Shown here one piece after another: positions 10,418-38,067 of a stretch of DNA of 64,000 nucleotides. A program made the translations under genes and the position numbers. The number at the start of each line of letters is the position of its first letter. Within the stretch, counting starts at the first letter, position 1. This stretch comes from Octopus vulgaris (taxonomy: Eukaryota). The notes beneath the pieces are model-generated. The model was not told the DNA's origin and did no database searches. It saw only the letters and a program-made list of their open reading frames with translations. The DNA lies in assembly GCA_951406725.2 (NCBI GenBank), contig OX597827.1, positions 80,166,001 through 80,230,000 on the forward strand, given 5' to 3'.

Positions 10418-12775
10418 CTTTGTAGACTTCTGAAGTGATCTGCTCATTGTCGATGTCTTCCAGTCTTCAGGATAGTAATGGCTCCTCGAATGACCATATC
10501 TGTCTGACATCTCTCCTCGATTACCTGACATCACAGGTACACTGTTGTTACCTTGATAGATCAACTGTCTCATCTCATTGCGACATTGGTATGCCTGTTT
10601 CTCTTCTGCTGTTCTTTCAGATGAGCTATTTCTCACATTGTTACATCTCACAATACACAGGGTTATAGAAACCACAATAGCTATAGATACTATCACAGCT
10701 GCTACTACAATGATAATCAACAATGTCGCATCTATTGTGTTATCACTTGGTAGGTGCACAGCTGTGAACATTGGTGACGTCTTGTTACTAACAGTCAGTG
10801 TCAAAGACACACTAGTTGTTGCTGACAGAACTGGAGTACCACTGTCTTTCACAACAAACTCAAGCTCATATGATCCGGCATCATTTTGGTAAACTGTGCG
10901 AGAGTAAGATAACACACCAGTGAACGAATCCAGTTTAAATAACTGTCTCTCGTTACCTGAAACGATTTCGTACCTGAGAAAAGCATTCATGTGACTGTCT
11001 ATATCAGATGCTTTCAGAACTGTGATGTCGTTCTTACTTTGCGGATGATAGTGGACATTAAGAGTGAAAGGGTCAACACTAGGAAATGTAAAATATGGAG
11101 CATTATCATTTCTATCCAATACTTCCACTTCAACATTCACTGTGTTATTCAGAGATGGGCTTCCATTGTCTTTCACAAAAACCTCAAACTCATAGAAATC
11201 TCTGTGTTCTCTGTCTAAAGACTGGTTTGTTGAAATAAAGCCAGAGTTGATAATCTGGAATGGCAGACGATATTGCTGTTTATTTCTCAGAGAATAAGAC
11301 AATTCACCTCCCTTACCAATATCTGGGTCTGTAGCATTGATAAAGCCAATAGGGAAATTAGCTTTGTCATTCTCATAGGTAAGGAACTTGAATGTGTCTT
11401 TCGTAAAGTGTGGTTCTACATCATTCACATCCAACACTTGGATTGACAGATCTTTATCAGTTTTCAGAGCAGGTAATCCTTTATCTTCACACGACACAGT
11501 AAAGTGATAATGTTCCTGTGTCTCTCTGTCTACTGCTTTCTTTAGAACTATTTTATATTCCTTCGATCCCATTGACTGTAGTTTGAATGTGTCATCTTTG
11601 ATATGACAGTTCACCTGTCCATTGTGTCCAACATCGTTGTCAGTGACCATCACATAAGCAATGAAACTACCAACTTTGATGTCTTCCAGAATGGTAGCTG
11701 TGTTGTGATTCTGTGTAGAAATAAAGTTCACATCAATATTTGGGGGATTGTTCTGCTGGTTGATGACATTTACCATAACAGTTGCTATGGAACTAAGCGG
11801 AGGACTGCCATCATCTCTGGCTTCGATGTATAATTTAAAAGACTCATCCTTATCCATTTTTGAAGATGTAGCTAAATATAATTTCCCAGTCCTTTCATGT
11901 AAATTAAAGTTTCTCTTCATTTTCTCAGCAGTTTTCCTAGCAAAATAATATGATATTTTACCATTCCTGCCAATATCTAAATCAGTGGCAGATATTGTGA
12001 CTACTGGAATATTCTTTTTATGTTTATGTTCGATAGAAACATTGTAGATACTTTGGGAAAATTGTGGTGGATTATCATTTTCATCTTCCACAGATATTTT
12101 AACATTTAAAACAGACTGCTTTGGTGGAGTTCCTCCATCTTTAGCAATGACTTCAATATCATAATCGTCCTTCTTTTCTCTGTCTAATTTCTCTTCTAAA
12201 ATAATTCCTAATGTTGATATTTCATCAGTCTGTTTTGCAACTGATAATGAAAAGTGTCCATTATCTTTTTTCAATTCATAAGTAATTAAGCTGTTTTCTG
12301 GACTCATATCTTTGTCAATAGCATTAGGTATGGGTTTCTTCATACCTTTACCATCACCTTCCCCAAAAATTAGTGTGATTTCTTTCTGAGGAAACTCAGG
12401 TTGGTGGTCATTGATGTCTTCTATTATGACTTTAATCTTTAAGATCTTCATAAATGTCTTGGATTTGTGAACAGCAACTTTAACGATTTCAAAACATTCT
12501 TTCTCATAACTACACACAGACTCAGCATCCAATGTCTCAACAGTGTACAGTTTACCTGTTCTCGTCACATTGAACAATTGTTCTCCCTTTTGTTGCAGTT
12601 GACTAAATGTAATTAAATCCTTATTCTTTAAGAAGGAGCTGTCTGATTTCTGTAAGTCAGTAGCAATGTCCCCTACATAGGTATGAGGAATATTCTCTTC
12701 TTTAACATGGTATGTGATATCTTCACTTAAATAACAGTGGAAGAAAGTCAGTAAAACACAGAGAAACAGCAACAT
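10418..12775 (-). CDS. Pcdh: Protocadherin G2 large exon (SP, EC1-EC6, TM, juxtamembrane)
   Basis: 794-aa ORF with cadherin motifs (DINDHQP, LDRE, DENDNPP, DVNDVEP, DRNDNAP), EC1 C-X5-C and TM LLIIIVVAAVIVSIAIVVSITLCIV. Donor AAG|gtaagc at 10418; acceptor before 12817. Confidence 0.97.
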
Positions 12776-13424
12776 TTCTGATCTTGTCCAGGAAAACGGT
12801 GGTTTGTAAAATTAAACCTGAAACAAAAAATATGTATCTCATATCAATAAGAAATGTATGGATTTGCAAACCAAGTTTCTTTTCTTTATTTCATTCATAA
12901 AAATATTTTCAATGAAGAACAGCAATGCTACTCTTCTTAATATCATGTACAAGTGGACAAGAATTATATGACCAATTCTTAGCAAACTTAATTATGTATA
13001 TTAAGATTCAATGATTCATAGAATTTCTGAAGACTTAAAGAGTAAAAGTGGCACTTATATCCAGATAAGTACTCTCAAACAAATATTAATCTGCCTAATT
13101 TTGAAGTAAATTAACTAAAGATGAGAAACGTGAATTGTGGGCAAGATCATAATTAATATTTTGACTCTCATTTTACGATGGAATCTAACTTCGCATCAAT
13201 ATTTTTACAGGTCAAAATACAAATATTTTATGGAACTTTGAGTTATTTCCCTTAAATATGACAAACAATTTTAAGTCGAGCAATTATCAATGAAAATATG
13301 CTTAGTTATGTACTTCACGTACGCACAGGTGTGTGTGTGTGTGTGTTTATGTGTGTGTGTGTGTGCTTGTGTGGGTGCTTGTGTATATATACATTTGTGA
13401 TAATGCTATATATATATATATATA

Positions 13425-13862
13425 AAAAGCAATAAAGATTCAAGTTAATTTAAATGAATTTACTTGAATATGGTACCTAACTTGGATGCACCAAAAAAAA
13501 CTATACTGATTTAACAATACAGTAATGTGGGGTGATTATAAGCGAGAATGAAGCAACAAGAATGGATAGGTTTTTAGTACAATCGTTTCATACAAGGACA
13601 GGTTTTATTAAAAGTTGCAAAAATTACAGCATATAAACGTGTCCCGTACTCATCAGCTAAAATACATGTGAGTTCTCTAGACATCCTAGTGGTTGAGGCT
13701 ATACTCATGAGGTAATGTAGATAATTAAGTAACATAAACAGATTTCAAAAGTTCATTAAAGTTCTTTAAAGATGATGTACAGTCTTATCACAGAATTTTA
13801 AAAAAGTCTTAATAGCATCACAGAGGAGGTGACCTAATCCATAGTGCACATATGAATTTCCA
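13425..13862 (-). mobile_element. Penelope-like retroelement fragment inserted in G2 intron 1
   Basis: ~440-bp segment absent from the otherwise near-identical G3 intron 1. Sits in a TA run and contains a minimal type I hammerhead motif characteristic of Penelope-like elements. Confidence 0.6.
13572..13662 (-). ncRNA. Minimal type I hammerhead ribozyme motif
   Basis: Minus strand: UUUUAG-CUGAUGA-GUACGGGACA...UGUCCUUGUAU-GAAA-C-GAUU-GUA-CUAAAA. Stem I UUUUAG/CUAAAA pairs perfectly, stem II pairs, and the conserved core boxes are intact. Confidence 0.75.
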
Positions 13863-14779
13863 TATAAATATATACAAAGCATTATCAAAATGTATTAACC
13901 AGTTTCAGAAAGTGCAATAATTATATATTCATGAATTTTAAAAAATACACGTGAAATCGGACAATGAAGTTTCTAAGATTATTAAATAGTAATGATATAC
14001 CACCTGGTGGTTAGTTATTGATCAGTTTAAGATACTAAGCCAAATCGCTTTAACTCAACTCCAAGAAATAATTCCTGTCAATAGCACTAAATTCTAAAGA
14101 AATTATAAACAAAAGAATTCTATAACATAATACTGTCCATTACTTGACTCATCTATTAAAGAAAAAAGTCTTCATACAAATTAGACCAGAAGTAAAGAAA
14201 ACGTTCGTTTAGTAAGGTGAGTAAGACTTAGCTGATTACTTTAAACTTGATAGGTATGAGAGAATGGCATATACCTGTTTAAACGTCAAACTAATAATTT
14301 TAAATAAAGCCACCTAATGTAAATCTGACAATAATTAAATAATCAACAGATTTACAGTTAATTGTGTCCTATAACTGAAAATGAAATAAAATTATGTAGA
14401 AAAAATCTAATATAAATACTTAATGAATGTATCTGTAATTAATTATTCTGAAATATGCATCAAACATTTGGAGACAACCTTTTTAGCGATCTGCAGGTGA
14501 ATGTTTGTTATCTGTAATAGACTAAATTATTTTTGTGTAAATCTATGTCAGCACTTCTTGAGCAAAATTATGATCAAAGCATTCCAACCATGACCATCCC
14601 ATAATTTTTCATATAATGGTACATTACCATCATAAAAAAAACAATCAACAGATAAAGATTCACACTGGAACAGATAACAAGGAATAATTACCAAATCAAT
14701 ACTCTTCATGTAGTTTTAATACCAGGTATTCCTAATGAATTTACTAAATTAACAAATTTTGATTAAAACAAGGTATAAG

Positions 14780-15185
14780 CTTGGTTGTATGATTAAGAAG
14801 TTTGCTTCCCAATCACATGGGTTTGGGTTCAGTCCCACTGCACGGCATCTTAGACAAGTGTCTTCTACTATAGCTCCAGTCTGACCAAATGCTTGCAAAT
14901 GGATTTGATGGACAGAAACTGAATGAAAGAAACCCATTGTGTGTGTGTATGTGTATGTGTCTTTCCCTCTCTTTGTAAAAAAGTGACACAGTTATACAAG
15001 CAGAGAGGTTCTTTCCAATCATCTATTAAAACATGTCTGGCCAACAGTAAATATTACCTTATTTGGAAATAGGTGAGGTTTGGCAACAGGAAGGGCAGTA
15101 GTCCATAGAAAATCTGACTCAATAAACATTTTCTGACCCATACAAACATGGAAAAGTGAATGTTAATAAAAACATGATGACAATG
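14780..15185 (+). mobile_element. Octopus-type tRNA-derived SINE with RTE-like tail
   Basis: aagaagtttgcttcccaatcacatgg...GGTTCAGTCCC (B box)...caagtgtcttctactatagc...(TG)n...ggcaacaggaagggc...atgatga. Paralogous copy at 23.0-23.4 kb. Confidence 0.75.
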
Positions 15186-15545
15186 ATCAAAGAACATACT
15201 AGAAAATGTTGGAAACACTTCTGGGTTATTACTGAAAACATATTAAGTATGTAAACTAAAAACAATCATTTACTGATCAACATTGGCCATATTTGTACAT
15301 TGAATTTGTTAAACACATTTCATAGACAACCAATATGAAATATTACATCATGAATACTGTTCAGTGACTGAACAAAGGAAGTGAATACAAAACTATACTC
15401 ATCAATAACTCACACAAAGCAATGAACATTTGCATCCACCCAAGACTAAACACACACACACACACACACACACACAATATACTATCACAAAAATGATAAT
15501 GGTTTCTAACTAAAATTTCTTATATGAACATGAATTGCAGTGAAA

Positions 15546-15590
<45 letters not shown>

Positions 15591-15828
15591 AAAGGCAGTC
15601 CCTTCTATATATGTAGGATGTTCTAAAGCCATACAATGTCTGAGTGATAGATGAAGTAAAAATGAAATAAAAAAGGCAGACAAGATAAACAGTGTGAAAA
15701 CACAAAAGATAAGAGAATATGCTTTGAGCAAAATGCTAGTGACTAGGATTGAACACACTCACTTCACTCTCTGTTTTTCACAATCTTTTCCATAACCAAC
15801 TCATAAAGACATTAAATGAGAACAAACA

Positions 15829-16450
15829 GATCTAATATGGCCACCATTAGAACGTTACATTTTGATAATGTATTATGGTTATATATGAAATCATTATTAC
15901 ACACAAGTGGATAAATAATATGGAATAACAAACTTACCTTCATTGTGTGTAAAATCCTTTGTTGTATAAAGTGTGACTTGGTCCCAATGTTCTGTTGTTA
16001 ATGGTTGTCTGTGTCACTGCTGCTATGGTGTGACAATGGCTTCATGTTGATGGAATAGTGTTGGTGGTGAGTCAGTGGGAACCAGCAGTTCCCTCTCAAG
16101 TCTTCCTTTGTGGATGTGTGGTGTTTAGTGAGTGTGTGCATGGGTGTGAGTGAGAGACAGAGAGAGGAGGAGAGATGGGTGATGCTCACTCCAGCCTCAC
16201 TCAGACTTGATGTGTTTTCCCTCACAATGAAAAGAGAGGGACAACAAACTATCAGCTCCACTAACAGTCAGCCATGATAAGTCTATATAACACCAACATG
16301 TCTGATGTAGAGAGAGACTGACATAGAAATCCTTAGAACAGAGAGGTTATATTAACTAAATATGGCTGATGTTGTTAATGTGTGTGTAATTTAAAATGTA
16401 AATATAACATTGATAATAACAGTTAGTGTCTGTCTGACCTAGTTCTAAAT
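15829..16450 (-). promoter_or_regulatory. Conserved promoter/first-exon block of G2 (exon ends 15938)
   Basis: Near-identical to the other five blocks; ATG-AAG|gtaagt donor. Confidence 0.75.
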
Positions 16451-16840
16451 TAATTCTCCTATTTAGAATGTAAAATGGAGAAATCAAAACTGTGAAATAA
16501 AGTATTATTCCTAAAATGTAATATAATCATTTTACTACTCAAATATATGTTATACAATTGTCTTATATTTGTTGCTTAAAATATTTTCAATTTTAAATTG
16601 TATTTCAAAAGTAAAAATGTCAATCTATAATTTCTTAGTCATTCCTTTATCTTTAGTTTACCTAACAGAGCTATAAATTTATTCCTCTTACCTAAGCTGT
16701 AAAATTATTGTCCGAAACACATACAAAGATATTCAGTCGTATGTAGGCAGTATTATTAACTAATTTGTTTTTGTTGTTTTAAATGTTGTGTGAATGTTGA
16801 AGGTGATATTATTTCTGTTGTGTTCCTTTCTCAGTCTCAC

Positions 16841-16962
16841 TTAACTGACAACAACATCTGGTGTTGAAGGTAACTGTCTCTCTGGAGGTTTCACATATCT
16901 GTCTTGGTAATGGTCTCTCTCACTGGTGCTTGATACATCGGGTGGGGCACCACCATAGATTC
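16841..16962 (-). CDS. Pcdh: Protocadherin G3 terminal coding exon
   Basis: tgtttcag acceptor; (G)IYGGAPP...RQLPSTPDVVVS*. Confidence 0.88.
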
Positions 16963-17301
16963 CTGAAACATATATATCAATGGGTATTCAACGAATGACT
17001 TTAGTCAACAGTTCCTTCTTTTATATTAAGTGCTCTACAAAATAACTATTATGAAGGGATTAATACCTCACTATACGATTAGACCTATACAATCTTGAGC
17101 ATATTACGTGACAATTAACTAATAAATAAAAAGAGATTTACTCTTTTAATTTATAAATTTAATTCATAGTGATAAAACTATTAGAAATAACATTTTGGAA
17201 GTCCTCAAAATCCTAGTGTTTGTTTAGACTTCAATCCCAGAGAGATCAATGGGATAAATGATAAACACACCAAATAACATAGGTAAATGTGAATGTTTTA
17301 C

Positions 17302-17455
17302 CTGCCATTGCTGGTATTTCTTCATACTGTCTGCTTGACCGCTCACTCCAGCACTGTCCACTGCTCTTACGACTGGCCAGTGTGTCAGTGGGATAGTGAG
17401 AAGATGGTCTGTTGTCTCCATAAGATGTCACCTCAATCGGTTGACTGTATTTCTG
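17302..17455 (-). CDS. Pcdh: Protocadherin G3 cytoplasmic exon (154 nt)
   Basis: aacag|CAG...GCAG|gtaaaa; matches ORF-track peptide TSYGDNRPSS...YEEIPAMAG. Confidence 0.9.
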
Positions 17456-19054
17456 CTGTTAGAGAAAACAAAAAACAACAATGACTTGATTTGTCCAAGA
17501 AAAACATTTGGAAATTCTGGATGCTTACTGTTTTGGGGTGTAAAGGTTAGGGTCTGTAGTTAGTGTGAGATATGGGAGAGGAGACCACAGTGGTAAGAGA
17601 AGAAGAAATGGGAAGGAACATCTCAGACGCAGAGGTTAGTGCATTGCTTAGTGAGTCTTCACTGATCACTGAAAGAAAAATTGTTTGAAAATTTTTCAAG
17701 TCAACACTAACATGCAGAAGGTAGCTCAGAGATTTTAGATAATTATAACTACACATCTATTGAAGAGAAGAAATCAGTACCATGATGATAAATTATTGCC
17801 AAGAAAGAAGGATACCTCATGAAATATTAACTATTTAACATTAATTAAAAATCAAGGATGTTTGTGTGTGAAGTAGATGTGATCACATTTCAGCTTTATA
17901 GAAGGTCAAGGCAGGTGAGATCATTAGATTCGAGGAATTTGATAAAAACTTCACACAAACACAACTCAAGAAGCTTCTATTCAACCTAAAACACTCACAA
18001 AATATTCTTTGTTTCCTTACAAGTAGTAGTAGTCTTAGATCCATTATTTTTAGAAAAAGGACAGGATAGCCACAATCTATAAATTCACGTTTCCAGTTAC
18101 GTTGCATCTCCATATATTGATGAACCATATCACTTTGACTCTGCTTTTCTACCTTCACTTACAGAGGCCTCGAATCTCAGAGGTCCCGCCCTGGGCGACT
18201 GAGCTTACTCATCTCTTCTCCTCTAGTCAATCATATTGCCAGCCTTTCTGTACCCTACAACAACCACTTAATCTTTCTGCCTCAGAACATCTTCCCCACT
18301 GAAATTCACTCTATTCCCATACTTCTCCAGCTGTTTTATACCAGTAATTACTCAAGAGAATATGCCACATTAACCTCAATTGTAACGGTCAAGGATACAG
18401 GCCCCACATCTGGACCAAACCCTTATGGAACAGAAAAAAAAACTTGTATATTTATATGCTAGTGTAATGATTTATTTAAATATTGAATGTTGTTACAGTC
18501 AAATAATAATAAAATATCGCAGACATTTGGTGTAGATGAGCAACATAACATACCAGAAATAACAATTTCTACTCTCAACTCATAATTCTAAAAGACTATG
18601 AAATAAACTAAAACTAAATTCTGAATTAGAAGCAGCTCGAATACTATAAACATAATTCAGGTCACAAACTTAATAAATGTGTTTTGTTTGAAGAGTTACA
18701 AGTCACAGGATTTCATCTATTGAAAGTTTCTTTAAGGCATACGTTGAAGAACACTGAATACTTCAAAACCAAACAAAACAGATGAAATACACAATTGATA
18801 ATGTTATACAAACATTGTTGGATAATAATTATGGAAATAATATCTAAATCTATATTTATGAAAATATAAAGATTACACTAAAAGTATAAATGAAGTTGTT
18901 CTCCAGAGGAGATTTAAGAGAATACCGAAATAGAAGATTAATACATATTTTCATGCTTTTTGGCAAACTTCAATTCACTGTCGATGTCTTCTATTCAAAT
19001 AATTCTTAATTAAACATTAATTACTAACAAACACTCAATCCAAATAAAGCTTAC

Positions 19055-21415
19055 CTTTGTAGACTTCTGAAGTGTCCGACTCATTGTTGACGTCTTCCAA
19101 TCTTCAGGATAGTAATGGCTTCTCGAATGACCATATCTGTCTGACATCTCTCCTCGATTACCTGACATCACAGGTACACTGTTGTTACCTTGATAGATCA
19201 ACTGTCTCATCTCATTGCGACATTGGTATGCCTGTTTCTCTTCTGCTGTTCTTTCAGATGAGCTATTTCTCACATTATTACATCTCACAATACACAGGGT
19301 TATAGAAACCACAATAGCTATAGATACTATCACAGCTGCTACTACAATGATAATCAACAATGTTGCATCTATTGTGTTATCACTTGGTAGGTGCACAGCT
19401 GTGAACATTGGTGACGTCTTGTTACTAACAGTCAGTGTCAAAGACACACTAGTTGTTGCTGACAGAACTGGAGTACCACTGTCTTTCACAACAAACTCAA
19501 GCTCATATGATCCGGCATCATTTTGGTAAACTGTGCGAGAGTAAGATAACACACCAGTGAACGAGTCCAGTTTAAATAACTGTCTCTCGTTACCTGAAAC
19601 GATTTCATACCTGAGAAAAGCATTCATGTGACTGTCTATATCAGATGCTTTCAGAACTGTGATGTCGTTCTTACTTTGCGGATGATAGTGGACATTAAGA
19701 GTGAAAGGGTCAACACTAGGAAATGTAAAATATGGAGCATTATCATTTCTATCCAATACTTCCACTTCAACATTCACTGTGTTATTCAGAGATGGGCTTC
19801 CATTGTCTTTCACAAAAACCTCAAACTCATAGAAATCTCTGTGTTCTCTGTCTAAAGACTGGTTTGTTGAAATAAAGCCAGAGTTGATAATCTGGAATGG
19901 CAGACGATATTGCTGTTTATTTCTCAGAGAATAAGACAATTCACCTCCCTTACCAATATCTGGGTCTGTAGCATTGATAAAGCCAATAGGGAAATTAGCT
20001 TTGTCATTCTCATAGGTAAGGAACTTGAATGTGTCTTTCGTAAAGTGTGGTTCTACATCATTCACATCCAACACTTGGATTGACAGATCTTTATCAGTTT
20101 TCAGAGCAGGTAATCCTTTATCTTCACACGACACAGTAAAGTGATAATGTTCCTGTGTCTCTCTGTCTACTGCTTTCTTTAGAACTATTTTATATTCCTT
20201 CGATCCCATTGATTGTAGTTTGAATGTGTCATCTTTGATATGACAGTTCACCTGTCCATTGTGTCCAACATCATTGTCAGTGACCATCACATAAGCAATG
20301 AAACTACCAACTTTGATGTCTTCCAGAATGGTGGCTGTGTTGTGATTCTGTGTAGAAATAAAGTTCACATCAATATTTGGGGGATTGTTGTGTTGGTTGA
20401 TGACATTTACCATAACGGTTGCTATGGAACTCAGAGGAGGAATTCCATTATCTTTAGCTTCAATATATAATTTTAAAGAATTTTTGGTGTCAACCTCTAA
20501 AGATTTTATTAAGAATATTTTCCCAGAGTTTTCATCAATATTAAAATACTGTTTCATTTGCATATCAGTCTTCGGACTGAAATAGAAAGATATTTTACCA
20601 TTCCTGCCAATATCTAAATCACTGGCAGATAATGTGACTACTGGAATATTCTTTTTATGTTTATGTTCTATAGAGACATTGTAGATACTTTGAGAAAACT
20701 GTGGTCTGTTGTCATTTTCGTCTTTTACAGATATTTTAACATTTAACACAGATTGTTTTGGTGGAGTTCCCCCATCTTTAGCAATGACTTCAACATTGTA
20801 ACTGTCTTTCGTTTCTCTGTCTAATTTCTTTTCTAAAATAATTTCTATTGATGATATTCCATCTGCACGTTTGACAACATGTAAAGAAAAGTGGCTTCTA
20901 TCATCTTTTCTCAGTTCATATGTAATTAAACTATTTTTATTACCCATATCTTTATCAACAGCATTGGGTATTGATAGTTTTGATCCTTTACTATCTCTCT
21001 CTGAAAACTGAATGTTGACTTCTTCAGTTGGAAACTCAGGTTGGTGGTCATTGATGTCTTCTATTATGACTTTAATCTTTAAGATCTTCATAAATGTCTT
21101 CGATTTGTGAACAGCAACTTTAACGATTTCAAAACATTCTTTCTCATAACTACACACAGACTCAGCATCCAATGTCTCAACAGTGTACAGTTTACCTGTT
21201 CTCGTCACATTGAACAATTGTTCTCCCTTTTGTTGGAGTTGACTAAATGTAATCAAATCCTTATTCTTTAAGAAGGAGCTGTCTGATTTCTGTAAGTCAG
21301 TAGCAATGTCCCCTACATAGGTATGAGGAATATTCTCTTCTTTAACATGGTATGTGATATCTTCACTTAAATAACAGTGGAAGAAAGTCAGTAAAACACA
21401 GAGAAACAGCAACAT
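19055..21415 (-). CDS. Pcdh: Protocadherin G3 large exon
   Basis: 801-aa ORF with six cadherin repeats and TM. Donor AAG|gtaagc at 19055; acceptor before 21471. Confidence 0.97.
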
Positions 21416-21997
21416 TCCTGATCTTGATATTAACGCAGTATCCAGAAGAAAGATGGTTTATAACATTAAACCTGAAACAAAAAATATGTATCTCATATCA
21501 ATAAGAAATGTATGGATTTGCAAACCAAGTTTGTTTTCTATATTTTATTCATAAAAATATTTTCAATGAAGAACAGCAATGCTACTCTTCTTAATATCAT
21601 GTACAAGTGGACAAGAATTATATGACCAATTCTTAGCAAACTTAATTATGTATATTAAGATTCAATGATTCATAGAATTTCTGAAGACTTAAAGAGTAAA
21701 AGTGGCACTTATATCCAGATAAGTACTCTCAAACAAATATTAATCTGCCTAATTTTGAAGTAAATTAATTAAAGATGAGAAACGTGAATTGTGGGCAAGA
21801 TCATAATTGATATTTTGACTCTCATTTTACGATGGAATCTAACTTCGCATCAATATTTTTACAGGTCAAAATACAAATATTTTATGGAACTTTGAGTTAT
21901 TTCCCTTAAATATGACAAACAATTTTAAGTCGAGCAATTATCAATGAAAATATGCTTAGTTATGTACTTTACGTACGCACAGGTGTGTGTGTGCTTG

Positions 21998-22043
<46 letters not shown>

Positions 22044-22046
<3 letters not shown>

Positions 22047-22137
22047 CACTTTCTGAATCTGGTTAATACATTTGTGATAATGGTGTATATATATAAAAAA
22101 CATTATCAAAATGTATTAACCAGTTTCAGAAAATGCT
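22044..22137. repeat. Near-perfect hairpin/inverted repeat (~38-bp arms)
   Basis: ttgcactttctgaatctggttaatacatttgtgataatg is the reverse complement (few mismatches) of cattatcaaaatgtattaaccagtttcagaaaatgc, around an 18-nt TA-rich loop. Confidence 0.85.
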
Positions 22138-22994
22138 ATAATTTTATATTCATGAATTTAAAAAAATACACGTGAAATCAGACAATGAAGTTTCTAAGAT
22201 TATTAAATAGTAATGATATACTACCTGGTGATTAGTTATTGATCAGTTTAAGATACTAAGCCAAATCACTTTAACTCAACTCCAAGAAATAATTCTTGTC
22301 AATAGCACTAAATTCTAAAGAAATTATAAACAAAATAATTCTATAACATAATACTGTCCATTACTTGACTCATCTGTTTATTGAAGAAAAAAGTCTTCAT
22401 ACAAATTAGACCAGAAGTAATGAAAACATTCATATAGCAGGTTAGCTGATTACTTTAAACTTAATAATTATGAAAGAATGGCGCTTAGCCGTTTAAACGT
22501 CAAACTAATAATTTTAAATAAAGCCATCTAATGTAAATCTGACAATAATTAAATAATCAACAGATATACAGTTAATTGTGTCCTATAACTGAAAATGAAA
22601 TAAAATTATGTAGAAAAAATCTAATATAAATACTTAATGAATGCATCTGTAATTAATTATTCTGAAATATGCATCAAACATTTGGAGACAACCTTTTTAG
22701 CGATCTGCAGGTGAATGTTTGTTATCTGTGATAGACTAAATTATTTTTGTGTAAATCTATGTCAGCACTTCTTGAGCAAAATTATGATCAAAGCATTCCA
22801 ACCATGACCATCCCATAATTTTTCATATAATGGTACATTACCATCATAAGAAAAACAATCAACAGATAAAGATTCACACTGGAACAGATAACAAGGAATA
22901 ATTACCAAATCAATACTCTTCATGCAGTTTTAATACCAGGTATTCCTAATGAATTTACTAAATTAACAAATTTTGATTAAAACAAGGTATAAGT

Positions 22995-23405
22995 TTGGTT
23001 GTGTGATTAAGAAGTTTGCTTCCCAATCACATGGGTTTGGGTTCAGTCCCACTGCACGGCATCTTAGACAAGTGTCTTCTATTATAGCTCCAGTCTGACA
23101 AAATGCTTGCAAATGGATTTAGTAGATAGAAACTGAATGAAAGAAACCCATCGTGTGTGTAAGTGTCTCTCCCTCTCTTCGTATTACGTGACAGTTGTAA
23201 AAGAGTGACACTATTATACAAGCAGTGAGGTTCTTTCCAATCATCAATTAAAACATGTCTGGCCAACAGTAAATATTACCTTATTTGGAAATAGGTGAGG
23301 TTTGGCAACAGGAAGGGCAGTAGTCCATAGAAAATCTGACTCAATAAACATTTTCTGACCCATACAAACATGGAAAAGTGAATGTTAATAAAAACATGAT
23401 GACAA
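22995..23405 (+). mobile_element. Octopus-type SINE (paralogous to 14780-15185)
   Basis: Same sequence in the same intronic context; duplicated with the gene unit. Confidence 0.75.
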
Positions 23406-23765
23406 TGATCAAAGAACATACTAGAAAATGTTGGAAACACTTCTGGGTTATTACTGAAAACATATTAAGTATGTAAACTAAAAACAATCATTTACTGATC
23501 AACATTGGCCATATTTGTACATTGAATTTGTTAAACACATTTCATAGACAACCAATATGAAAGATTACATCATGAATACTGTTCAGTGACTGAACAAAGG
23601 AAGTGAATACAAAACTATACTCATCAATAACTCACACAAAGCAATGAACATTTGCATCCACCCAAGACTAAACACACACACAATATACTATCACAAAAGT
23701 AATAATGGTTTTTAACTAATATTCTTTTTCTTAATTAAAATTTCTTATATGAACATGAATTGCAA

Positions 23766-23825
<60 letters not shown>

Positions 23826-24057
23826 GCAGTCCCTTCTATATATGTAGGATGTTCTAAAGCCATACAATGTCTGAGTGATAGATGAAGTAAAAATGAAATA
23901 AAAAAGGCAGACAAGATAAAAAGTGTGAAAACACAAAAGATAAGAGAATATGCTTTGAGCAGAATGCTAGTGACTAGGATTGAACACACTCACTTCACTC
24001 TTTGTTTTTCACAATCTTTTCCATAACCAACTCATAAAGACATTAAATGAGAACAAA

Positions 24058-24685
24058 CAGATCTAATATGGCCACCATTAGAACGTTACATTTTGATAAT
24101 ATAATATGGTTATATATGAAATCATTATTTCACATAATTTGAATAAATAATATGGAATAACAAACTTACCTTCATTGTGTGTAAAATCCTTTGTTGTATA
24201 AACTGTGACTTGGTCCCAATGTTCTGTTGTTAATGGTTGTCTGTGTCACTGCTGCTATGGTGTGACAATGGCTTCATGTTGATGGAATAGTGTTGGTGGT
24301 GAGTCAGTGGGAACCAGCAGTTCCCTCTCAGTCTTCCTTTGTGGATGTGTAGTGTTTAGTGAGTGTGTGCATGGGTGTGAGTGAGAGACAGAGAGAGGAG
24401 AGATGGGTGATGCTTACTCCAGCCTCACTCAGACTTGATGTGTTTTCCCTCACAATGAAAAGTGAGGGACAACAAACTATCAGCTCCACTAACAGTCAGC
24501 CATGATAAGTCTATATAACACCAACATGTCTGATGTGGAGAGAGACTGACATAGAAATACTTAGAACAGAGAGGTTATATTAACTAAATATGGCTGATGT
24601 TGTTAATGTGTGTGTAATTTAAAATGTAAATACAATATTGACAATAAGAGTTAGTGTGTGTGTGTGTGTCTGACCTAATTCTAAA
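24058..24685 (-). promoter_or_regulatory. Conserved promoter/first-exon block of G3 (exon ends 24170)
   Basis: Near-identical block; ATG-AAG|gtaagt. Confidence 0.75.
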
Positions 24686-25080
24686 TTAATTCTCCCATTT
24701 AGAATGTAAAATGGAGAAATCAAAACTGTGAAATAAAGTATTATTTCTAAAATGTAATATAATCATTTTACTACTCAAATATATGTTATACAATTGTCTT
24801 ATATATGTTGCTTAAAATATTTTCAATTTTAAATTGTATTTCACAAGTAAAAATGTCAATCTATAATTTCTTAGTCATTCCTTTATCTTTAGTTTACCTA
24901 ACAGAGCTATAAATTTATTCCTCTTACCTAAGCTGTAAAATTATTGTCTGAAACACATACAAAGATATTCAGTCATATGTGGGCAATATCATTGTCTAGC
25001 TAATATATTTGTGTTGTTTTAAATGTTGTGTGAATGTTGAAGGTGATATTATTTCTGTTGTGTTCCTTTCTCAGTCTCAC

Positions 25081-25202
25081 TTAACTGACAACAACATCTG
25101 GTGTTGAAGGTAACTGTCTCTCTGGAGGTTTCACATATCTGTCTTGGTAATGGTCTCTCTCACTGGTGCTTGATACATCGGGTGGGGCACCACCATAGAT
25201 TC
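25081..25202 (-). CDS. Pcdh: Protocadherin G4 terminal coding exon
   Basis: Intact copy, ends DVVVS*. Confidence 0.82.
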
Positions 25203-25541
25203 CTGAAACATATATATCAATGGGTATTCAACGATTGACTTTAGTCAACAGTTCCTTCTTTTATATTAAGTGCTCTACAAAATAACTATTATAAAGAGAT
25301 TAATACCTCACTATACGATTAGACCTATACAATCTTGAGCATATTACGTGACAATTAACTAATAAATAAAAATAGATTTACACTTTTAATTTATAAATTT
25401 AATTCATAGTGATAAAACTATTAGAAATAACATTTTCGAAGTCCTCAAAATCCTAGTGTTTGTTTAGACTTCACTCCCAGATATATCAATGGGATAAATG
25501 ATAAACACACCAAATAACATAGGTAAATGTGAATGTTTTAC

Positions 25542-25695
25542 CTGACATTGCTGGTATTTCTTCATACTGTCTGCTTGACCGCTCACTCCAGCACTGTCCA
25601 CTGCTCTTACGACTGGTCAATGTGTCAGTGGGATAGTTAGAAGATGGTCTGTTGTCTCCATAAGATGTTACTTCAATGGGTTGACTGTATTTCTG
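25542..25695 (-). CDS. Pcdh: Protocadherin G4 cytoplasmic exon (154 nt)
   Basis: Intact splice sites and open frame. Confidence 0.82.
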
Positions 25696-27354
25696 CTGTT
25701 AGAGAAAACAAAAAACAACAATGACTTGATTTGTCCAAGAAAAACATTTGGGAATTCTGGATGCTTACTGTTGTGGAGTGTAAAGGTTAGGGTCTGTGGT
25801 TAGTGTGAGATATGGGAGAGGAGACCATGGTAAAAGTTTTGAGACTGGAATGAGTTTTCAGCAAGCTATTCATAGAAAGAGTCCATGGCAGTGGTAAGAG
25901 AAGAAGAAATGAGAAGGAACATCTCAGACGCAGAAGTTAGTGCATTGCTTAGTGAGTATTCACTGATCACTGAAAGAAAAATTGTTTGAAAATTTTCAAG
26001 TCAACACTAACATGCAGAAGGTAGCTAAGAGATTTTAGATAATTATAACTACACATCTATTGACGAGAAGAAATAAGTGCCATAATGATAAATTATTGCC
26101 AAGAAAGAAGGATACCTCATGAAATATTAACTATTTAACATTAATTAAAAATCAAGGATGTTTGTGTGTGAAGTAGCAGTGATCACATTTCAGCTTTATA
26201 GAAGGTCAAGGCAGGTGAGATCATTAGATTCGAGGATTTTGATAAAAACTTCACACAAACAAAATTCAAGAAGCTTCTATTCAACCTAAAACACTCACAA
26301 AATATTCTTTGTTTCCTTACAAGTAGTAGTAGTCTTAGATCCATTATTTTTAGAAAAAGAACAGGATAGCCACAATCTATACGTTCATGTTTCCAGTTAT
26401 GTTGCATCTCCATATATTGATGGACCATATCACTTTGACTCTGCTTTTCTACTTTCACTTACAGAAGCCTCGACTCTCAGAGGTCCCACCCTGGGCGACT
26501 CATCTTACTCATCTCTTCTCCTCTAGTCAATCGTATTGCCAGCCTTTCTGCACCCTACAACGACCACTTAATCTTTCTGCCTCAGAACATCTTCCCCACT
26601 GAAATTTACTCTATTCCCATACTTCTCCAGCTGTTTTATACTAGTAATTACTCAAGAGAATAAGCTACATTAACCTCAATTGTGAGGGTCAAGGACACAG
26701 GCCCCACATCGGGACCAAACCCTTATGCAACAGAAAAAAAAACTTGTATATTAATATGCTAGTGTAATGATTTATTTAAATATTGAATGTTGTTACAGTC
26801 AAATAATAATAAAATATTGCAGACATTTGGTGTAGATGAGCAACATAACATACCAGAAATAACAATTTCTACTCTTAACTCATAATTCTAAAAGAGTACA
26901 AAATAAACTAAAACTAAATTCTGAATTAGAAGCAGCTCTAATACTATAAACATAATTCAGGTCACAAACTTAATAAGTGTGTTTTGTTTGAAGAGTTACA
27001 AGTCACAGGATTTCATCCATGGAAAGTTTCTTTAAGACATACGTTGAAGAACACTGAATACTTCAAAACCAAACAAAACAGATGAAATACACAATTGATA
27101 ATGTTATACAAACATTGTTTGATAATAATTATGGAAATAATATCTAAAACTATATTTATGAAAATATAAAGATTACACTAAAAGTATAAATGAAGTTGTT
27201 CTCCAGAGGAGATTTAAGAGAATACCGAAATAGAAGATTAATAGATATTTTCATGCTTTCTGGCAAACTTCAATTCACTGTCGGTGTCTTTTATTCAAAT
27301 AGTTCTTAATTAAACATTAACTACTAACAAACACTCAATCCAAATATATCTTAC

Positions 27355-29750
27355 CTTTGTAGACTTCTGAAGTGATCTGCTCATTGTCGATGTCTTCCAG
27401 TCTTCAGGATAGTAATGGCTCCTCGAATGACCATATCTATCTGACATCTCTCCTCGATTACCTGACATCACAGGTACACTGTTGTTACCTTGATAGATCA
27501 ACTGTCTCATCTCATTGCGACATTGGTATGCCTGTTTCTCTTCTGCTGTTCTTTCAGATGAGCTATTTCTCACATTGTTACATCTCACAATACACAGGGT
27601 TATAGAAACCACAATAGCTATAGATACTATCACAGCTGCTACTACAATGATAATCAACAATGTCGCATCTATTGTGTTATCACTTGGTAGGTGCACAGCT
27701 GTGAACATTGGTGACGTCTTGTTACTAACAGTCAGTGTCAAAGACACACTAGTTGTTGCTGACAGAACTGGAGTACCACTGTCTTTCACAACAAACTCAA
27801 GCTCATATGATCCGGCATCATTTTGGTAAACTGTGCGAGAGTAAGATAACACACCAGTGAACGAATCCAGTTTAAATAACTGTCTCTCGTTACCTGAAAC
27901 GATTTCATACCTGAGAAAAGCATTCATGTGACTGTCTATATCAGATGCTTTCAGAACTGTGATGTCGTTCTTACTTTGCGGATGATAGTGGACATTAAGA
28001 GTGAAAGGGTCAACACTAGGAAATGTAAAATATGGAGCATTATCATTTCTATCCAATACTTCCACTTCAACATTCACTGTGTTATTCAGAGATGGGCTTC
28101 CATTGTCTTTCACAAAAACCTCAAACTCATAGAAATCTCTGTGTTCTCTGTCTAAAGACTGGTTTGTTGAAATAAAGCCAGAGTTGATAATCTGGAATGG
28201 CAGACGATATTGCTGTTTATTTCTCAGAGAATAAGACAATTCACCTCCCTTACCAATATCTGGGTCTGTAGCATTGATAAAGCCAATAGGGAAATTAGCT
28301 TTGTCATTCTCATAGGTAAGGAACTTGAATGTGTCTTTCGTAAAGTGTGGTTCTACATCATTCACATCCAACACTTGGATTGACAGATCTTTATCAGTTT
28401 TCAGAGCAGGTAATCCTTTATCTTCACACGACACAGTAAAGTGATAATGTTCCTGTGTCTCTCGATCTACTGCTTTCTTTAGAACTATTTTATATTCCTT
28501 CGATCCCATTGACTGTAGTTTGAATGTGTCATCTTTGATATGACAGTTCACCTCTCCATTGTGTCCAACATCATTGTCAGTGACCATCACATAAGCAATG
28601 AAACTACCAACTTTGATGTCTTCCAGAATGGTAGCTGTGTTGTGATTCTGTGTAGAAATAAAGTTACATCAATATTTGGGGGATTGTTGTGTTCATTGAT
28701 GACATTTATTTGAATGATTGCCAGGGAACTGAGAGGGGAAATACCATTATCCCTGGCTTCCACATATAATTTAAAATTCTCTTCTTTTCCAAATTCTATT
28801 GATTTAGCTAAATATAACACTCCTGTATTTTCATTCAAGTGAAAATATTTTCTCATCTTCACATCAGTTTTCTGACTGAAATAGAAAGATATTTTACCAT
28901 TCCTGCCAATGTCTAAATCACTGGCAGATAATGTGACTACTGGAATATTCTTTTTATGTTTATGTTCAATAGAGACATTGTAGATACTTTGAGAAAATTG
29001 TGGTTTATTATCATTTTCATCTTCCACAGATATTTTAACATTTAAAACAGATTCTTTTGGTGGAGTTCCTCCATCTTTAGCAATGACTTCAATATTGTAA
29101 CTGTCCTTCTTTTCTCTGTCTAATTTCTCTTCTAAAATAATTTCTAAAGTTGATATTTCATCAGCTATTTTTGATTGGGATAAGGAAAAATGTCCATCAC
29201 CATGTAATACATATTTGATTAAACTGTTCTGATATCCAACATCCTTATCAACTGCATTAGGTATAGCCTTCTTCATACCTTTACCATCACTTTCCCTAAA
29301 ATGTAGAGTAATTTCTTTCTCAGGAAACTCAGGTTGGTGGTCATTGATGTCTTCTATTATGACTTTAATCTTTAAGATCTTCATAAATGTCTTGGATTTG
29401 TGAACAGCAACTTTAACGATTTCAAAACATTCTTTCTCATAACTACACACAGACTCAGCATCCAATGTCTCAACAGTGTACAGTTTACCTGTTCTCGTCA
29501 CATTGAACAACTGTTCTCCCTTTTGTTGCAGTTGACTAAATGTAATTGAATCCTTATTCTTTAAGGAGCTGTCTGATTTCTGTAGGTCAGTAGCTATGTC
29601 CCCTACATAAGTGTAGGAATTCTTCTCTTCTTCAACATGATATGAGATATCTTCACTTGAATAACAATGAGAAAAAGTCAATAAAATACAGAGACACAAC
29701 AGCATCTCTGGTCGTGATGTCCAGGAATTTGGTAGATTCACATTATTAAT
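27355..29750 (-). pseudogene. Pcdh: Protocadherin G4 large exon with a 1-bp frameshift (pseudogene, null allele or assembly error)
   Basis: Split into 384-aa and 426-aa ORFs. Plus strand reads aagttacatc at 28661-28670 where all paralogs have aagttcacatc. Signal-peptide ATG at 29705, acceptor before 29750, donor at 27355. Confidence 0.85.
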
Positions 29751-32334: not shown

Positions 32335-32960
32335 ACAGATCTAATATGGCCACCATCAGAATATTACATTTTCATATTACAGGAAGGCTACATATGAAAT
32401 CATTATTTCACGTAATTTGAATAAATAATATTGAACAATAGACTTACCTTCATTGTGTGTAAAATCCTTTGTTGTATAAACTGTGACTTGGTCCCAATGT
32501 TCTGTTGTTAATGGTTGTCTGTGTCACTGCTGCTATGGTGTGACAATGGCTTCATGTTGATGGAATAGTGTTGGTGGTGAGTCAGTGGGAACCAGCAGTT
32601 CCCTCTCAGTCTTCCTCTGTGGATGGGTGGTGTTTAGTGAGTGTGTGCATGGGTGTGAGTGAGAGACAGAGAGAGGAAGAGATGGGTGATGCTCACTCCA
32701 GCCTCACTCAGACTTGATGTGTTTTCCCTCACAATGAAAAGAGAGGGACAACAAACTATCAGCTCCACTAACAGTCAGCCATGATAAGTCTATATAACAC
32801 CAACATATCTGATGTGGAGAGAGACTGACATAGAAATCCTTAGAACAGAGAGGTTATATTAACAAAATATGGCTGATGTTGTTAATGTGTGTGTAATTTA
32901 AAATGTAAATACAATATTGACAATAACAGTTAGTGTGTGTGTGTCTGACCTAATTCTAAA
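32335..32960 (-). promoter_or_regulatory. Conserved promoter/first-exon block of G4 (exon ends 32448)
   Basis: Near-identical block; ATG-AAG|gtaagt. Confidence 0.75.
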
Positions 32961-33390
32961 CTAAATCTCCTTTTTAGCAAATTTAAGGCTGCCATGTAAA
33001 CTATATTTATATTTAAAATGTAATGGAGGCATTTTACATCATAAAGTTGTTGATATTAATTGCTTGAAAACATTTTTTTAATGTCAAACTTTACTTCACT
33101 GGGAGGAATACAAATCAATGATTTCTTCCAATATTGCATTTACCTTTCGTTTACCTAACAATAGGGTGTTGTGAATTGATTAATCAGAACAATTGATGCT
33201 ATATCAGTTTTTATCTGCAGAAACCTACCCCAGATGTACACATTTCAAATACTTTGTCTGAAGCACATACAAAGATATTCAGTCATATGTTGGCAATATT
33301 ATTATCTAACTAATATATTTCTGTTGTTTTAAATGTTGTGTGAATGTTGAAGGTGATATTATTTCTGTTGTGTTCCTTTCTCAGCCTCAC

Positions 33391-33512
33391 TTAACTGACA
33401 ACAACATCTGGTGTTGAAGGTAACTGTCTCTCTGGAGGTTTCACATATCTGTCTTGGTAATGGTCTCTCTCACTGGTGCTTGATACATCGGGTGGGGCAC
33501 CACCATAGATTC
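33391..33512 (-). CDS. Pcdh: Protocadherin G5 terminal coding exon
   Basis: Intact copy, ends DVVVS*. Confidence 0.88.
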
Positions 33513-33851
33513 CTGAAACATATATATCAATGGGTATTCAACGATTGACTTTAGTCAACTATTCCTTCTTTTGTATTAAGTGCTCTATAAAATAACTATT
33601 TTAAAGGGATTAATACCTCACTATACGATTAGACCTAGACAATCTTGAGCATATTAAGTGACAATTAACTAATAAATAAAAATAGATTTACTCTTTTAAT
33701 TTATAAATTTAATTCATAGTGATAAAACTATTAGAAATAATATTTTGGAAGTCCTCAAAATCCTAGTGTTTGTTTAGACTTCACTCCCAGACATATCAAT
33801 GGGATAAATGATAAACACACCAAATAACATAGGTAAATGTGAATGTTTTAC

Positions 33852-34005
33852 CTGACATTGCTGGTATTTCTTCATACTGTCTGCTTGACCGCTCACTCCA
33901 GCACTGTCCACTACTCTTATGACTGGTCAGTGTGTCAGTGGGATAGTGAGAAGATGGTCTGTTGTCTCCATAAGATGTCACCTCAATCGGTTGACTGTAT
34001 TTCTG
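33852..34005 (-). CDS. Pcdh: Protocadherin G5 cytoplasmic exon (154 nt)
   Basis: Matches ORF-track peptide ...YEEIPAMSG; canonical splice sites. Confidence 0.9.
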
Positions 34006-35664
34006 CTGTTAGAGAAAACAAAAAACAACAATGACTTGATTTGTCCAAGAAAAACATTTGGGAATTCTGGATGCTTACTGTTGTGGGGTGTAAAGGTTAG
34101 GGTCTGTGGTTAGTGTGAGATATGGGAGAGGAGACCATGGTAAAAGTTTTGAGACTGGAATGAGTTTTCAGCAAGCTATTCATAGAAAGAGTCCATGGCA
34201 GTGGTAAGAGAAGAAGAAATGAGAAAGAACATCTCAGACGCAGAGGTTAGTGCATTGCTTAGTGAGTATTCACTGATCACTGAAAGAAAAATTGTTTGAA
34301 AATTTTTCAAGTCACACTAAGATACAAAAGGTAGCTAAGAGATTTTAGATAATTATAACTACACATCTATTGAAGAGAAGAAATAAGTGCCATAATGATA
34401 AATTATTGCCAAGAAATAAGGATACCTCATGAAATATTAACTATTTAACATTAATTAAAAATCATGGATGTTTGTGTGTGAAGTAGCAGTGATCACATTT
34501 CAGCTTTATAGAAGGTCAAGGCAGGTGAGATCATTAGATTCGAGGATTTTGATAAAAACTTCACACAAACAAAATTCAAGAAGCTTCTATTCAACCTAAA
34601 ACACTCACAAAATATTCTTTGTTTCCTTACAAGTAGTAGTAGTCTTAGATCCATTATTTTTAGAAAAAGGACAGGATAGCCACAATCTATAAATTCATGT
34701 TTCCAGTTATGTTGCATCTCCATATATTGATGGACCATATCACTTTGACTCTGCTTTTCTACCTTCACTTACAGAAGCCTCGACTCCCAGAGGTCCCACC
34801 CTGGGCGACACATCTTACTCATCTCTTCTCCTCTAGTCAATTGTATTGCCAGCCTTTCTGCACCCTACAACGACCACTTAATCTTTCTGCCACAGCACAT
34901 CTTCCCCACTGAAATTCACTCTATTCCCATACTTCTCCAGCTGTTTTATACTAGTAATTACTCAAGAGAATAAGCTACATTAACCTCAATTGTGAGGGTC
35001 AAGGACACAGGCCCCACATCGGGACCAAACCCTTATGCAACAGAAAAAAAAACTTGTATATTAATATGCTAGTGTAATGATTTATTTAAATATTGAATGT
35101 TGTTACAGTCAAATAATAATAAAATATTGCAGACATTTGGTGTAGATGAGCAACATAACATACCAGAAATAACAATTTCTACTCTTAACTCATAATTCTA
35201 AAAGAGTACAAAATAAACTAAAACTAAATTTTGAATTAGAAGCAGCTCTAATACTATAAACATAATTCAGGTCACAAACTTAATAAATGTGTTTTGTTAG
35301 AAGAGTTACAAGTCACAGGATTTCATCCATGGAAAGTTTCTTTAAGACATACGTTGAAGAACACTGAATACTTCAAAACCAAACAAAACAGATGAAATAC
35401 ACAATTGATAATGTTATACAAACATTGTTTGATAATAATTATGGAAATAATATCTAAAACTATATTTATGAAAATATAAAGATTACACTAAAAGTATAAA
35501 TGAAGTTGTTCTCCAGAGGAGATTTAAGAGAATACCGAAATAGAAGATTAATAGATATTTTCATGCTTTCTGGCAAACTTCAATTCACTGTCGGTGTCTT
35601 TTATTCAAATAGTTCTTAATTAAACATTAACTACTAACAAACACTCAATCCAAATATATCTTAC

Positions 35665-38067
35665 CTTTGTAGACTTTTGAAGACTTCTGCTCATTGTCGA
35701 TGTCTTCCAGTCTTCAGGATAGTAATGGCTTCTCGAATGACCATATCTGTCTGACATCTCTCCTCGATTACCTGACATCACAGGTACACTGTTGTTACCT
35801 TGATAGATCAACTGTCTCATCTCATTGCGACATTGGTATGCCTGTTTCTCTTCTGCTGTTCTTTCAGATGAGCTATTTCTCACATTGTTACATCTCACAA
35901 TACACAGGGTTATAGAAACCACAATAGCTATAGATACTATCACAGCTGCTACTACAATGATAATCAACAATGTCGCATCTATTGTGTTATCACTTGGTAG
36001 GTGCACAGCTGTGAACATTGGTGACGTCTTGTTACTAACAGTCAGTGTCAAAGACACACTAGTTGTTGCCGACAGAACTGGAGTACCACTGTCTTTCACA
36101 ACAAACTCAAGCTCATATGATCCGGCATCATTTTGGTAAACTGTGCGAGAGTAAGATAACACACCAGTGAACGAATCCAGTTTAAATAACTGTCTCTCGT
36201 TACCTGAAACGATTTCATACCTGAGAAAAGCATTCATGTGACTGTCTATATCAGATGCTTTCAGAACTGTGATGTCGTTCTTACTTTGCGGATGATAGTG
36301 GACATTAAGAGTGAAAGGGTCAACACTAGGAAATGTAAAATATGGAGCATTATCATTTCTATCCAATACTTCCACTTCAACATTCACTGTGTTATTCAGA
36401 GATGGGCTTCCATTGTCTTTCACAAAAACCTCAAACTCATAGAAATCTCTGTGTTCTCTGTCTAAAGACTGGTTTGTTGAAATAAAGCCAGAGTTGATAA
36501 TCTGGAATGGCAGACGATATTGCTGTTTATTTCTCAGAGAATAAGACAATTCACCTCCCTTACCAATATCTGGGTCTGTAGCATTGATAAAGCCAATAGG
36601 GAAATTAGCTTTGTCATTCTCATAGGTAAGGAACTTGAATGTGTCTTTCGTAAAGTGTGGTTCTACATCATTCACATCCAACACTTGGATTGACAGATCT
36701 TTATCAGTTTTCAGAGCAGGTAATCCTTTATCTTCACACGACACAGTAAAGTGATAATGTTCCTGTGTCTCTCTGTCTACTGCTTTCTTTAGAACTATTT
36801 TATATTCCTTCGATCCCATTGACTGTAGTTTGAATGTGTCGTCTTTGATATGACAGTTCACCTGTCCATTGTGTCCAACATCATTGTCAGTGACCATCAC
36901 ATAAGCAATGAAACTACCAACTTTGATGTCTTCCAGAATGGTAGCTGTGTTGTGATTCTGTGTAGAAATAAAGTTCACATCAATATTTGGAGGATTGTTG
37001 TGTTCATTGATAACATTTATCTGAATTATTGCTACGGAGCTCAGTGGAGGACTGCCATCATCTCTGGCTTCAATGTATAATTTTAAAGACTCTTCTTTAT
37101 CAATTTCTGAAGATGTAGCTAAATATAATTTCCCAGTATTTTCATCTAAATTAAAATGTCTCTTCATTTTCTCAGCAGTTTTCCTGGCAAAGTAATATGA
37201 TATTTTACCATTCCTGCCAATATCTAAATCACTGGCAGATAATGTGACTACTGGAATATTCTTTTTATGTTTATGTTCAATGGAGACATTGTAAATACTT
37301 TGAGAAAACAGAGGTGTATTATCATTTTGATCTTGTACAGATATTTTAACATTTAAAACAGATTGTTTTGGTGGAGATCCTCCATCTTTGGCAATGACCT
37401 GAATACTATAACTATCTTTCTTTTCTCTATCTAATTTCTCTTCTAAAATAATTCCCAATGTTAATATTCCATTAGTATGTTTGGCAACTACTAAAGAGAA
37501 ATACTGATTATCCTTTTTTAATTCATATGTAATTAAACTGTTCTCATATCCCACATCTTTATCAATAGCATTTTCTATTGATCTCTTCGTGCCTTTGCCA
37601 TCTGTTTCAGAAAATTGAATATTGACTTCTTCAGTTGGAAACTCAGGTTGGTGGTCATTGATGTCTTCTATTATGACTTTAATCTTTAAGATCTTCATAA
37701 ATGTCTTGGATTTGTGAACAGCAACTTTAACGATTTCAAAACATTCTTTCTCATAACTACACACAGACTCAGCATCCAATGTCTCAACAGTGTACAGTTT
37801 ACCTGTTCTCGTCACATTGAACAATTGTTCCCCTTTTTGTTGTAGTTGACTAAATGTAATTAAATCCTTATTCTTTAGGAAGGAACTGTCTGATTTCTGT
37901 AGGTCAGTAGCAATGTCCCCTACATAGGTATAGGGACTATTCTCTTCTTCAACATGGTATGTGATATCTTCACTTAGGGAAAAGTGAAAGAAAGTCAGTA
38001 ATACATACAGACATAACATTTCTGTTCTTGACAGTATCCAGGGATAAGGAGAACACAATTTGTTCAT
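35665..38067 (-). CDS. Pcdh: Protocadherin G5 large exon
   Basis: 818-aa ORF. Acceptor ttttgtttcag before 38067 (exon begins ATG AAC AAA), signal-peptide Met at 38019, donor at 35665. Confidence 0.97.

Follow-up and report, generated by a model that had tools for sequence, protein, structure and literature searches.

Results

The window examined here, 64 kb of Octopus vulgaris DNA (contig OX597827.1, positions 80,166,001 to 80,230,000), is part of a minus-strand array of protocadherins, which are adhesion genes of nerve cells, and holds seven protocadherin genes, G1 to G7, all on the minus strand. We examined 264 kb around the window, which contain 25 genes in the transcription order G8 to G1 and then H1 to H17; the closest named relatives of the array proteins are Octopus and Argonauta proteins. 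In every gene, the signal peptide, EC1 to EC6, the transmembrane (TM) segment, and the cytoplasmic start are encoded by one large exon, and two tail exons follow. Six cadherin repeats, TM segment, and cytoplasmic start in a single large exon, and tandem, same-strand, full-gene duplicates with their own tail exons, are the features by which we assign the array to the coleoid clustered protocadherins. Of the 24 spacers, 23 contain tail exons and a conserved block with a splice donor at its end; we read this block as the putative promoter and 5′ exon of the gene that follows. Splice frames were checked on the DNA for G2 to G7, and exon limits were set from the DNA and the annotated proteins.

Two spacer units of about 8 kb, S′ and S, stand out in this array; S′ runs from EC1 of G2 to EC4 of G3, and S runs from EC1 of G3 to EC4 of G4. 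An earlier note on this DNA had reported that ~12390–20390 aligns almost end to end with ~21030–28690. The match holds, its limits can be refined (Table 1), and the two units are 91–100% alike per 200 columns, except at a ~510-bp insertion and its edge. Substitutions between S and S′ amount to 62/1598 in intron A (3.9%), 9/339 in intron B (2.7%), 13/381 in the 3′ untranslated region (UTR) and intergenic DNA (3.4%), 12/517 in the promoter block (2.3%), and 126/2702 in intron 1 (4.7%). As the note had also stated, both units carry the same short interspersed nuclear element (SINE) and microsatellites: a SINE-like element (the label rests on high read depth) and GT/AT and AC/AT repeats lie at equivalent places, with different repeat lengths. 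The downstream introns are likewise common to G5, with differences of 1.7–4.1% in introns A and B. G5 also has the next promoter block in common, but not the 3′ UTR between them (25–27% different), and intron 1 of G4 does not align with that of G3 (53%).

Flank sharing of this kind is rare. Across the 264 kb, a 5′ flank is shared by 3 of 276 gene pairs and a 3′ flank by 5 of 253; most array spacers are unrelated to each other, and partial spacer sharing recurs at H2–H6 and H11–H17. Because so few gene pairs share flanks, chance is excluded as the source of the unit match. The unit edges are sharp: G2 and G3 have only 3 coding differences before codon 129 and then diverge abruptly, and G3 and G4 converge past codon 341. 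Long near-identical stretches in the array are confined to EC1 and EC4-cytoplasmic, and the unit ends fall there. The shared introns are younger than the ~8% divergence between O. vulgaris and O. bimaculoides and older than the heterozygosity of O. vulgaris, given as >1.1% in the available text of PMC6472339.

One coding domain inside the units is more uniform still. In EC5, synonymous divergence (dS) is 0.002 over 25 genes, which makes this domain more uniform than the introns, and one of its 45-mers is present in 26 perfect copies. Since each of four public runs contains a single zero-mismatch EC5 contig at very high depth, this uniformity is not a polishing artefact. EC4-cytoplasmic identity is 97.6–100% within species and 94–95% between species. 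When 24 O. vulgaris genes (the truncated G8 was left out) were compared with 19 Argonauta proteins picked for the same C-terminal type, 16 species-diagnostic columns were found in EC4-cytoplasmic and 0 in EC2-3. The GC content at third codon positions (GC3) is 0.34–0.39 in the homogenised domains and 0.20–0.28 in EC2/EC3. The EC4-cytoplasmic pattern is one of concerted evolution.

The EC2-EC3 cassettes that bound the units are far more divergent than the non-coding DNA beside them, as the earlier note had claimed: their all-site differences are 19.6–21.4% (~21%), against 2.7–4.7% in the introns. For all six pairs among G2 to G5, dS is 0.48–0.64 in EC2-EC3 and 0.017–0.053 in EC4-cytoplasmic; intronic divergence and EC2-EC3 dS are not equal but more than tenfold apart. 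For comparison between species we used 49 of 120 listed hits (of 416) together with cluster members. The variable EC3 of G3 is 99–100% identical in two cassettes of a contig with proteins labelled O. sinensis. Its identity is 97% with P0001 of O. bimaculoides and 82% with a protein of Argonauta, but 76% with the most similar O. vulgaris paralogue. For EC2-EC3 of G4, identity reaches 80% with an Argonauta protein and at most 76% with paralogues of the same species. EC2 motifs like those of G3, G4, G6, and H7 are also present in Argonauta, and EC3 types recur there too. These comparisons indicate that the cassettes predate the species splits. A donor for the G3 cassette above 87% was not found among the 40 scored of 116 assembly candidates.

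Within the cassettes, EC2 and EC3 have separate histories. The EC2-start and EC3 distance matrices of the 14 closest genes are uncorrelated (r −0.03; odd/even control, 0.69–0.75). H5, for example, is like H3 in EC2 (4%) and like G2 in EC3 (6%), yet G2 and H5 are 22% apart in EC2. Two sister-species cassettes join a G3-type EC3 (99–100%) to two different, non-G3 EC2s; in the same species the G4 EC3 occurs with three EC2s and the G5 EC3 with two, where duplicate models and uncollapsed haplotypes are possible. The leaders give no consistent direction of copying: the sister-species G3-type protein carries the G3 signal peptide, but in O. bimaculoides the G3 leader precedes a G1-type cassette. The statement that everything except EC2-EC3 is homogenised was thus too wide, for the majority of spacers show no relationship and EC2-EC3 is itself swapped in short patches. 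These patterns indicate that EC2-EC3 is not spared from conversion and is a mosaic of old blocks. Separately, EC2 of G7 (~56880–56980) and H10, 150 kb apart, have a 103-bp identical tract, and their EC2-3 otherwise shows 73% protein identity. We also observed that the O. bimaculoides fused model P0149 has cassettes in the order G7-like, G6-like, G1-like, G3-like, and then the G2-like EC3 type; its G1-like cassette before the G3-like one is the reverse of the order in this window.

We then placed the variable DNA on an AlphaFold model (mean predicted local distance difference test score, 85), with strand letters of our own assignment. It spans strands A–E of EC2 and strands C–G of EC3, and the conserved gap between comprises EC2 F–G and EC3 A–B. 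In vertebrate dimers, the EC2 A-B-E-D face pairs with the EC3 C-F-G face (PMC7082078) and specificity resides more in EC2/EC3 (bioRxiv 493106), according to the available parts of these two sources. On the model, the variable stretches cover the contact faces of vertebrate dimers. The EC2 D-E patch co-varies with the EC3 C-loop and E-F patches in three species (r 0.24–0.44), whereas the EC2 A-B patch does not; an EC2-EC3 correlation (r 0.55) had been seen before this finer patch test. A homodimer prediction for EC1-EC4 of G3 scored 0.15 against a mark of 0.32 and was used neither for nor against any reading. By eye, among 54 related and non-independent cassettes (G3 numbering), all 8 cassettes with Arg183 in the EC2 D-E loop have Glu319 on EC3 strand F, and the 8 with Lys319 all have Glu or Gln at position 183.

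Read depth and assembly bear on how many units exist. Contig depth gives no copy number, and the introns are AT-rich; with this limit, EC5 depth is ~1.5–2x a rough single-copy yardstick. The EC5 contig (window 11214–11593 and paralogues) had a depth corresponding to ~36–48 copies in four runs, compared with 26 assembled, an excess possibly due to collapse or copy-number variation. The pair of S and S′ may not be fixed across animals, and the gene number of the array may exceed the assembled one. In contigs of the four runs, in which bubbles are collapsed, 16 of 28 listed intron and UTR variants have the letter of the opposite unit, which means that public data contain letters of both kinds; these contigs did not link intron variants to cassettes. 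The 264 kb contain no N letters. A haplotype false duplication would give at most two versions at the level of heterozygosity; introns A and B instead occur in three versions at 1.7–4.1%, and therefore not all are alleles and at least one pair is truly paralogous.

The features are listed in Table 1. Several irregularities were seen along the array. Frameshifts (−1, +1, and −2 nt) occur in 3 of 25 genes, at window ~28666, in H1 (L001), and in H10 (L008), which may be pseudogenes or assembly errors. G8 (L020) stops within EC6, and the 38 kb preceding G7 yielded neither tail exons nor a promoter block. Intron A of G6 is only 233 bp (42302–42534), and the exon end of this gene is unlike that of the others. 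An inverted repeat of ~155 bp (90%) lies upstream of G7, at 59524–59677 and 60199–60356.

Table 1. Features of the protocadherin array around G2 to G5 (positions in the window)
Feature	Position	Strand	Remark
G2 large coding exon (signal peptide, EC1-EC6, TM, cytoplasmic start)	10418..12775	(-)	
G2 EC2-EC3 cassette	11747..12403	(-)	EC2 nearest H6 (8%), EC3 nearest H5 (6%)
Unit S′: G3 EC4-tail, G2 promoter block, intron 1, signal peptide, EC1	12404..20383	(-)	
G2 intron 1, predicted	12818..15937	(-)	GT-AG ends (DNA only)
High-copy insertion, ~510 bp	13356..13865	not assigned	unit S′ only
SINE-like repeat common to both units	14790..15170		counterpart near 23005-23390
Putative G2 promoter and 5′ non-coding exon	15938..16458	(-)	conserved block ending in splice donor
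G3 last coding exon with stop	16841..16962	(-)	matches tail of O. bimaculoides P0001
G3 second coding exon (cytoplasmic tail)	17302..17455	(-)	
G3 large coding exon	19055..21415	(-)	
G3 EC2-EC3 cassette	20384..21043	(-)	
Unit S: G4 EC4-tail, G3 promoter block, intron 1, signal peptide, EC1	21044..28682	(-)	
Putative G3 promoter and 5′ non-coding exon	24170..24694	(-)	
G4 tail exons	25081..25695	(-)	25542-25695 and 25081-25202
G4 large coding exon	27355..29705	(-)	1-nt frameshift near 28666, real or assembly error
G4 EC2-EC3 cassette	28683..29336	(-)	
G4 promoter block	32448..32969	(-)	2.1-2.5% from G2 and G3 promoter blocks
G5 EC4-tail with introns A and B	33264..36993	(-)	third copy of downstream half-unit
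G5 EC2-EC3 cassette	36994..37650	(-)	

Discussion

The explanation that we favour, with somewhat better than even confidence, is that S and S′, of ~8 kb each, derive from recent out-of-register copying of a single spacer and sit between old EC2-EC3 cassettes, which selection keeps distinct. Pairing within the array would have slipped by one gene, and a tract with its ends held in the near-identical coding blocks of EC1 and EC4-cytoplasmic would then overwrite the next spacer. A single unequal crossover was rejected on geometry, as it would duplicate the full period including the cassette; the unit is the period minus the cassette, and therefore two ends, of a two-ended tract or of two crossovers, would be needed. 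One long conversion, a double crossover, or duplication followed by loss of the redundant cassette would all yield the same product. Of the earlier proposal that unequal crossover or long conversion homogenises the array, what survives is that ectopic recombination homogenised the spacer and the constant region and left EC2-EC3 old. Replacement of the spacer is favoured because O. bimaculoides models also have a G3-type cassette followed by the G2-like EC3 type, with a different leader. Short tracts would keep re-assorting EC2 and EC3 blocks and give duplicates new combinations, and selection likely keeps each recognition cassette distinct.

We infer this selection rather than measure it, and regard it as likely. 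The age of the cassettes and the position of their variable faces speak for the earlier suggestion that EC2-EC3 is kept distinct; several observations weigh against it or against other parts of the explanation. Averaged over sites, positive selection was not found in EC2-3 (dN/dS, the ratio of nonsynonymous to synonymous divergence, 0.28), and the ratio is 0.22–0.37 in the variable patches. Three of the seven flank-sharing pairs (H3/H5, H12/H13, and H12/H14) have young cassettes (3.8–6.7%), that is, the cassette was copied along; these are ordinary whole-gene duplicates, and in two of the three the first EC2 patch is the most diverged (11–12% vs 1–5%). Variability is also among the highest in EC3 strands D-E, which lie off the interface face of vertebrates, and the co-variation of the EC2 D-E patch with EC3 could also stem from shared ancestry. 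The run test, which at p ≤ 0.001 flags 9 of 91 pairs, or 3 of 91 when confined to third positions, is inflated by the conserved middle segment and rate variation. Intron-1 contig depth per assembled copy, ~0.45–0.8 of the single-copy yardstick in the four runs, is lower than two fixed copies predict.

Some of these points would suit the same recombination acting with no selection on the cassette, in which mismatches in the diverged EC2-3 block stop the tracts and old blocks persist passively. We give this a small chance. It agrees with the low dN/dS, the young cassette duplicates, and an origin of EC2/EC3 patch co-travel in shared ancestry, and tract ends within the long identical EC4-cytoplasmic block would by default give 3′-flank sharing without cassette sharing. 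However, a 660-bp cassette between near-identical anchors should be replaced more easily than an 8-kb spacer, and both the coincidence of the variable-DNA limits with the vertebrate interface faces and the recurrence of EC2 motifs and EC3 types in Argonauta argue for more than passive persistence. Slightly less probable is plain tandem duplication that produced a whole extra gene, with the EC2-3 of this gene later replaced from a donor now lost or located on another haplotype. Patch exchange into cassettes is common, and depth gives a hint of EC5-type genes beyond the 26 in the assembly, but the 40 candidates scored (of 116) include no donor above 87%, and the order of G3-type cassette and G2-like EC3 type is the same in O. 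bimaculoides models.

The units could also be alleles placed in tandem by the assembly, with the G2 and G3 cassettes as ancient balanced alleles, which we regard as unlikely and as the least probable of the three alternatives. No record spanning the units was found among the short contigs of the four runs, type-specific intron contigs are near half of the rough single-copy depth, and the frameshifts may be assembly errors. One diploid locus cannot, however, give three versions of introns A and B; in addition, the 2.7–4.7% divergence exceeds the heterozygosity reported in the text of PMC6472339 that was available, the sequence is free of N, and reshuffling of flanks and cassettes is seen between species too.

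Replacement of spacers between old cassettes has partial precedents. In vertebrate clustered protocadherins, regional gene conversion leaves dS highest in EC2/EC3 and lowest in EC5/EC6, and selection on EC2/EC3 has been proposed (PMC4978886, in its available text, reporting Noonan 2004). The octopus array has the same dS ranking, and its paralogues are more alike within than between species in the converted domains. Vertebrate protocadherins also have raised GC3 in converted domains, as the homogenised octopus domains do, and their conversion events are reported as coding-restricted, whereas the octopus tracts take in kilobases of intron and promoter. The octopus system is further set apart by its independent origin and an EC5 near-invariant over 25 genes. 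Unlike the vertebrate alpha and gamma clusters, where variable exons are spliced to shared constant exons, the octopus genes have separate tail exons, which conversion keeps similar; a constant region maintained by conversion instead of shared exons is what the comparison of these genes indicates. Recognition genes of the major histocompatibility complex (MHC) type offer another parallel, with patchwork alleles and trans-species motifs, old motifs being re-assorted by short conversion. The octopus patchwork differs from these in being among array paralogues, and dN/dS >1 was not found.

Within coleoids, the accessible parts of Albertin 2022 (PMC9068888) likewise describe protocadherins without shared constant exons, and together with those of Styfhals 2019 (PMC6339937) they suggest from gene trees that conversion homogenises sub-arrays, which consist, as here, of tandem, same-orientation, multi-exon full-gene duplicates. 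To what these parts of the two papers present, our analysis adds domain- and intron-level comparison, the offset spacer unit, and trans-species EC2/EC3 patches. No domain- or intron-level analysis in cephalopods was found by title and abstract in the library searched, with supplements and subscription papers (e.g., Wang and Ragsdale 2017) outside the scope, and the coleoid literature reviewed, in its available text, contains no functional claim for cephalopod protocadherins. Conversion sparing EC2-EC3 is thus already known in vertebrates from these sources, homogenisation has been suggested in coleoids, and replacement of kilobase spacers between old cassettes is new relative to them.

By analogy with vertebrates, the EC2/EC3 blocks would set homophilic binding specificity. 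More speculatively, and with less than even confidence, octopods may have independently built a neuronal barcode generator by recombination alone, with a virtual constant region of EC1 and EC4-tail, and with promoter-spacer modules, EC2 A–E, and EC3 C–G shuffled separately from motifs older than the Octopus–Argonauta split; sister species, and perhaps individuals, would then differ in promoter-cassette combinations and gene numbers. In such arrays, trees built from whole genes are misleading as to age and orthology. Spacer copying would pass one gene's promoter to another cassette, and G2 and G3 share a promoter copy. With diversity on the same EC2:EC3 faces as in vertebrates, convergent self-recognition would be directly testable with a few natural chimeras, of which G3 and its two sister-species forms are on offer.

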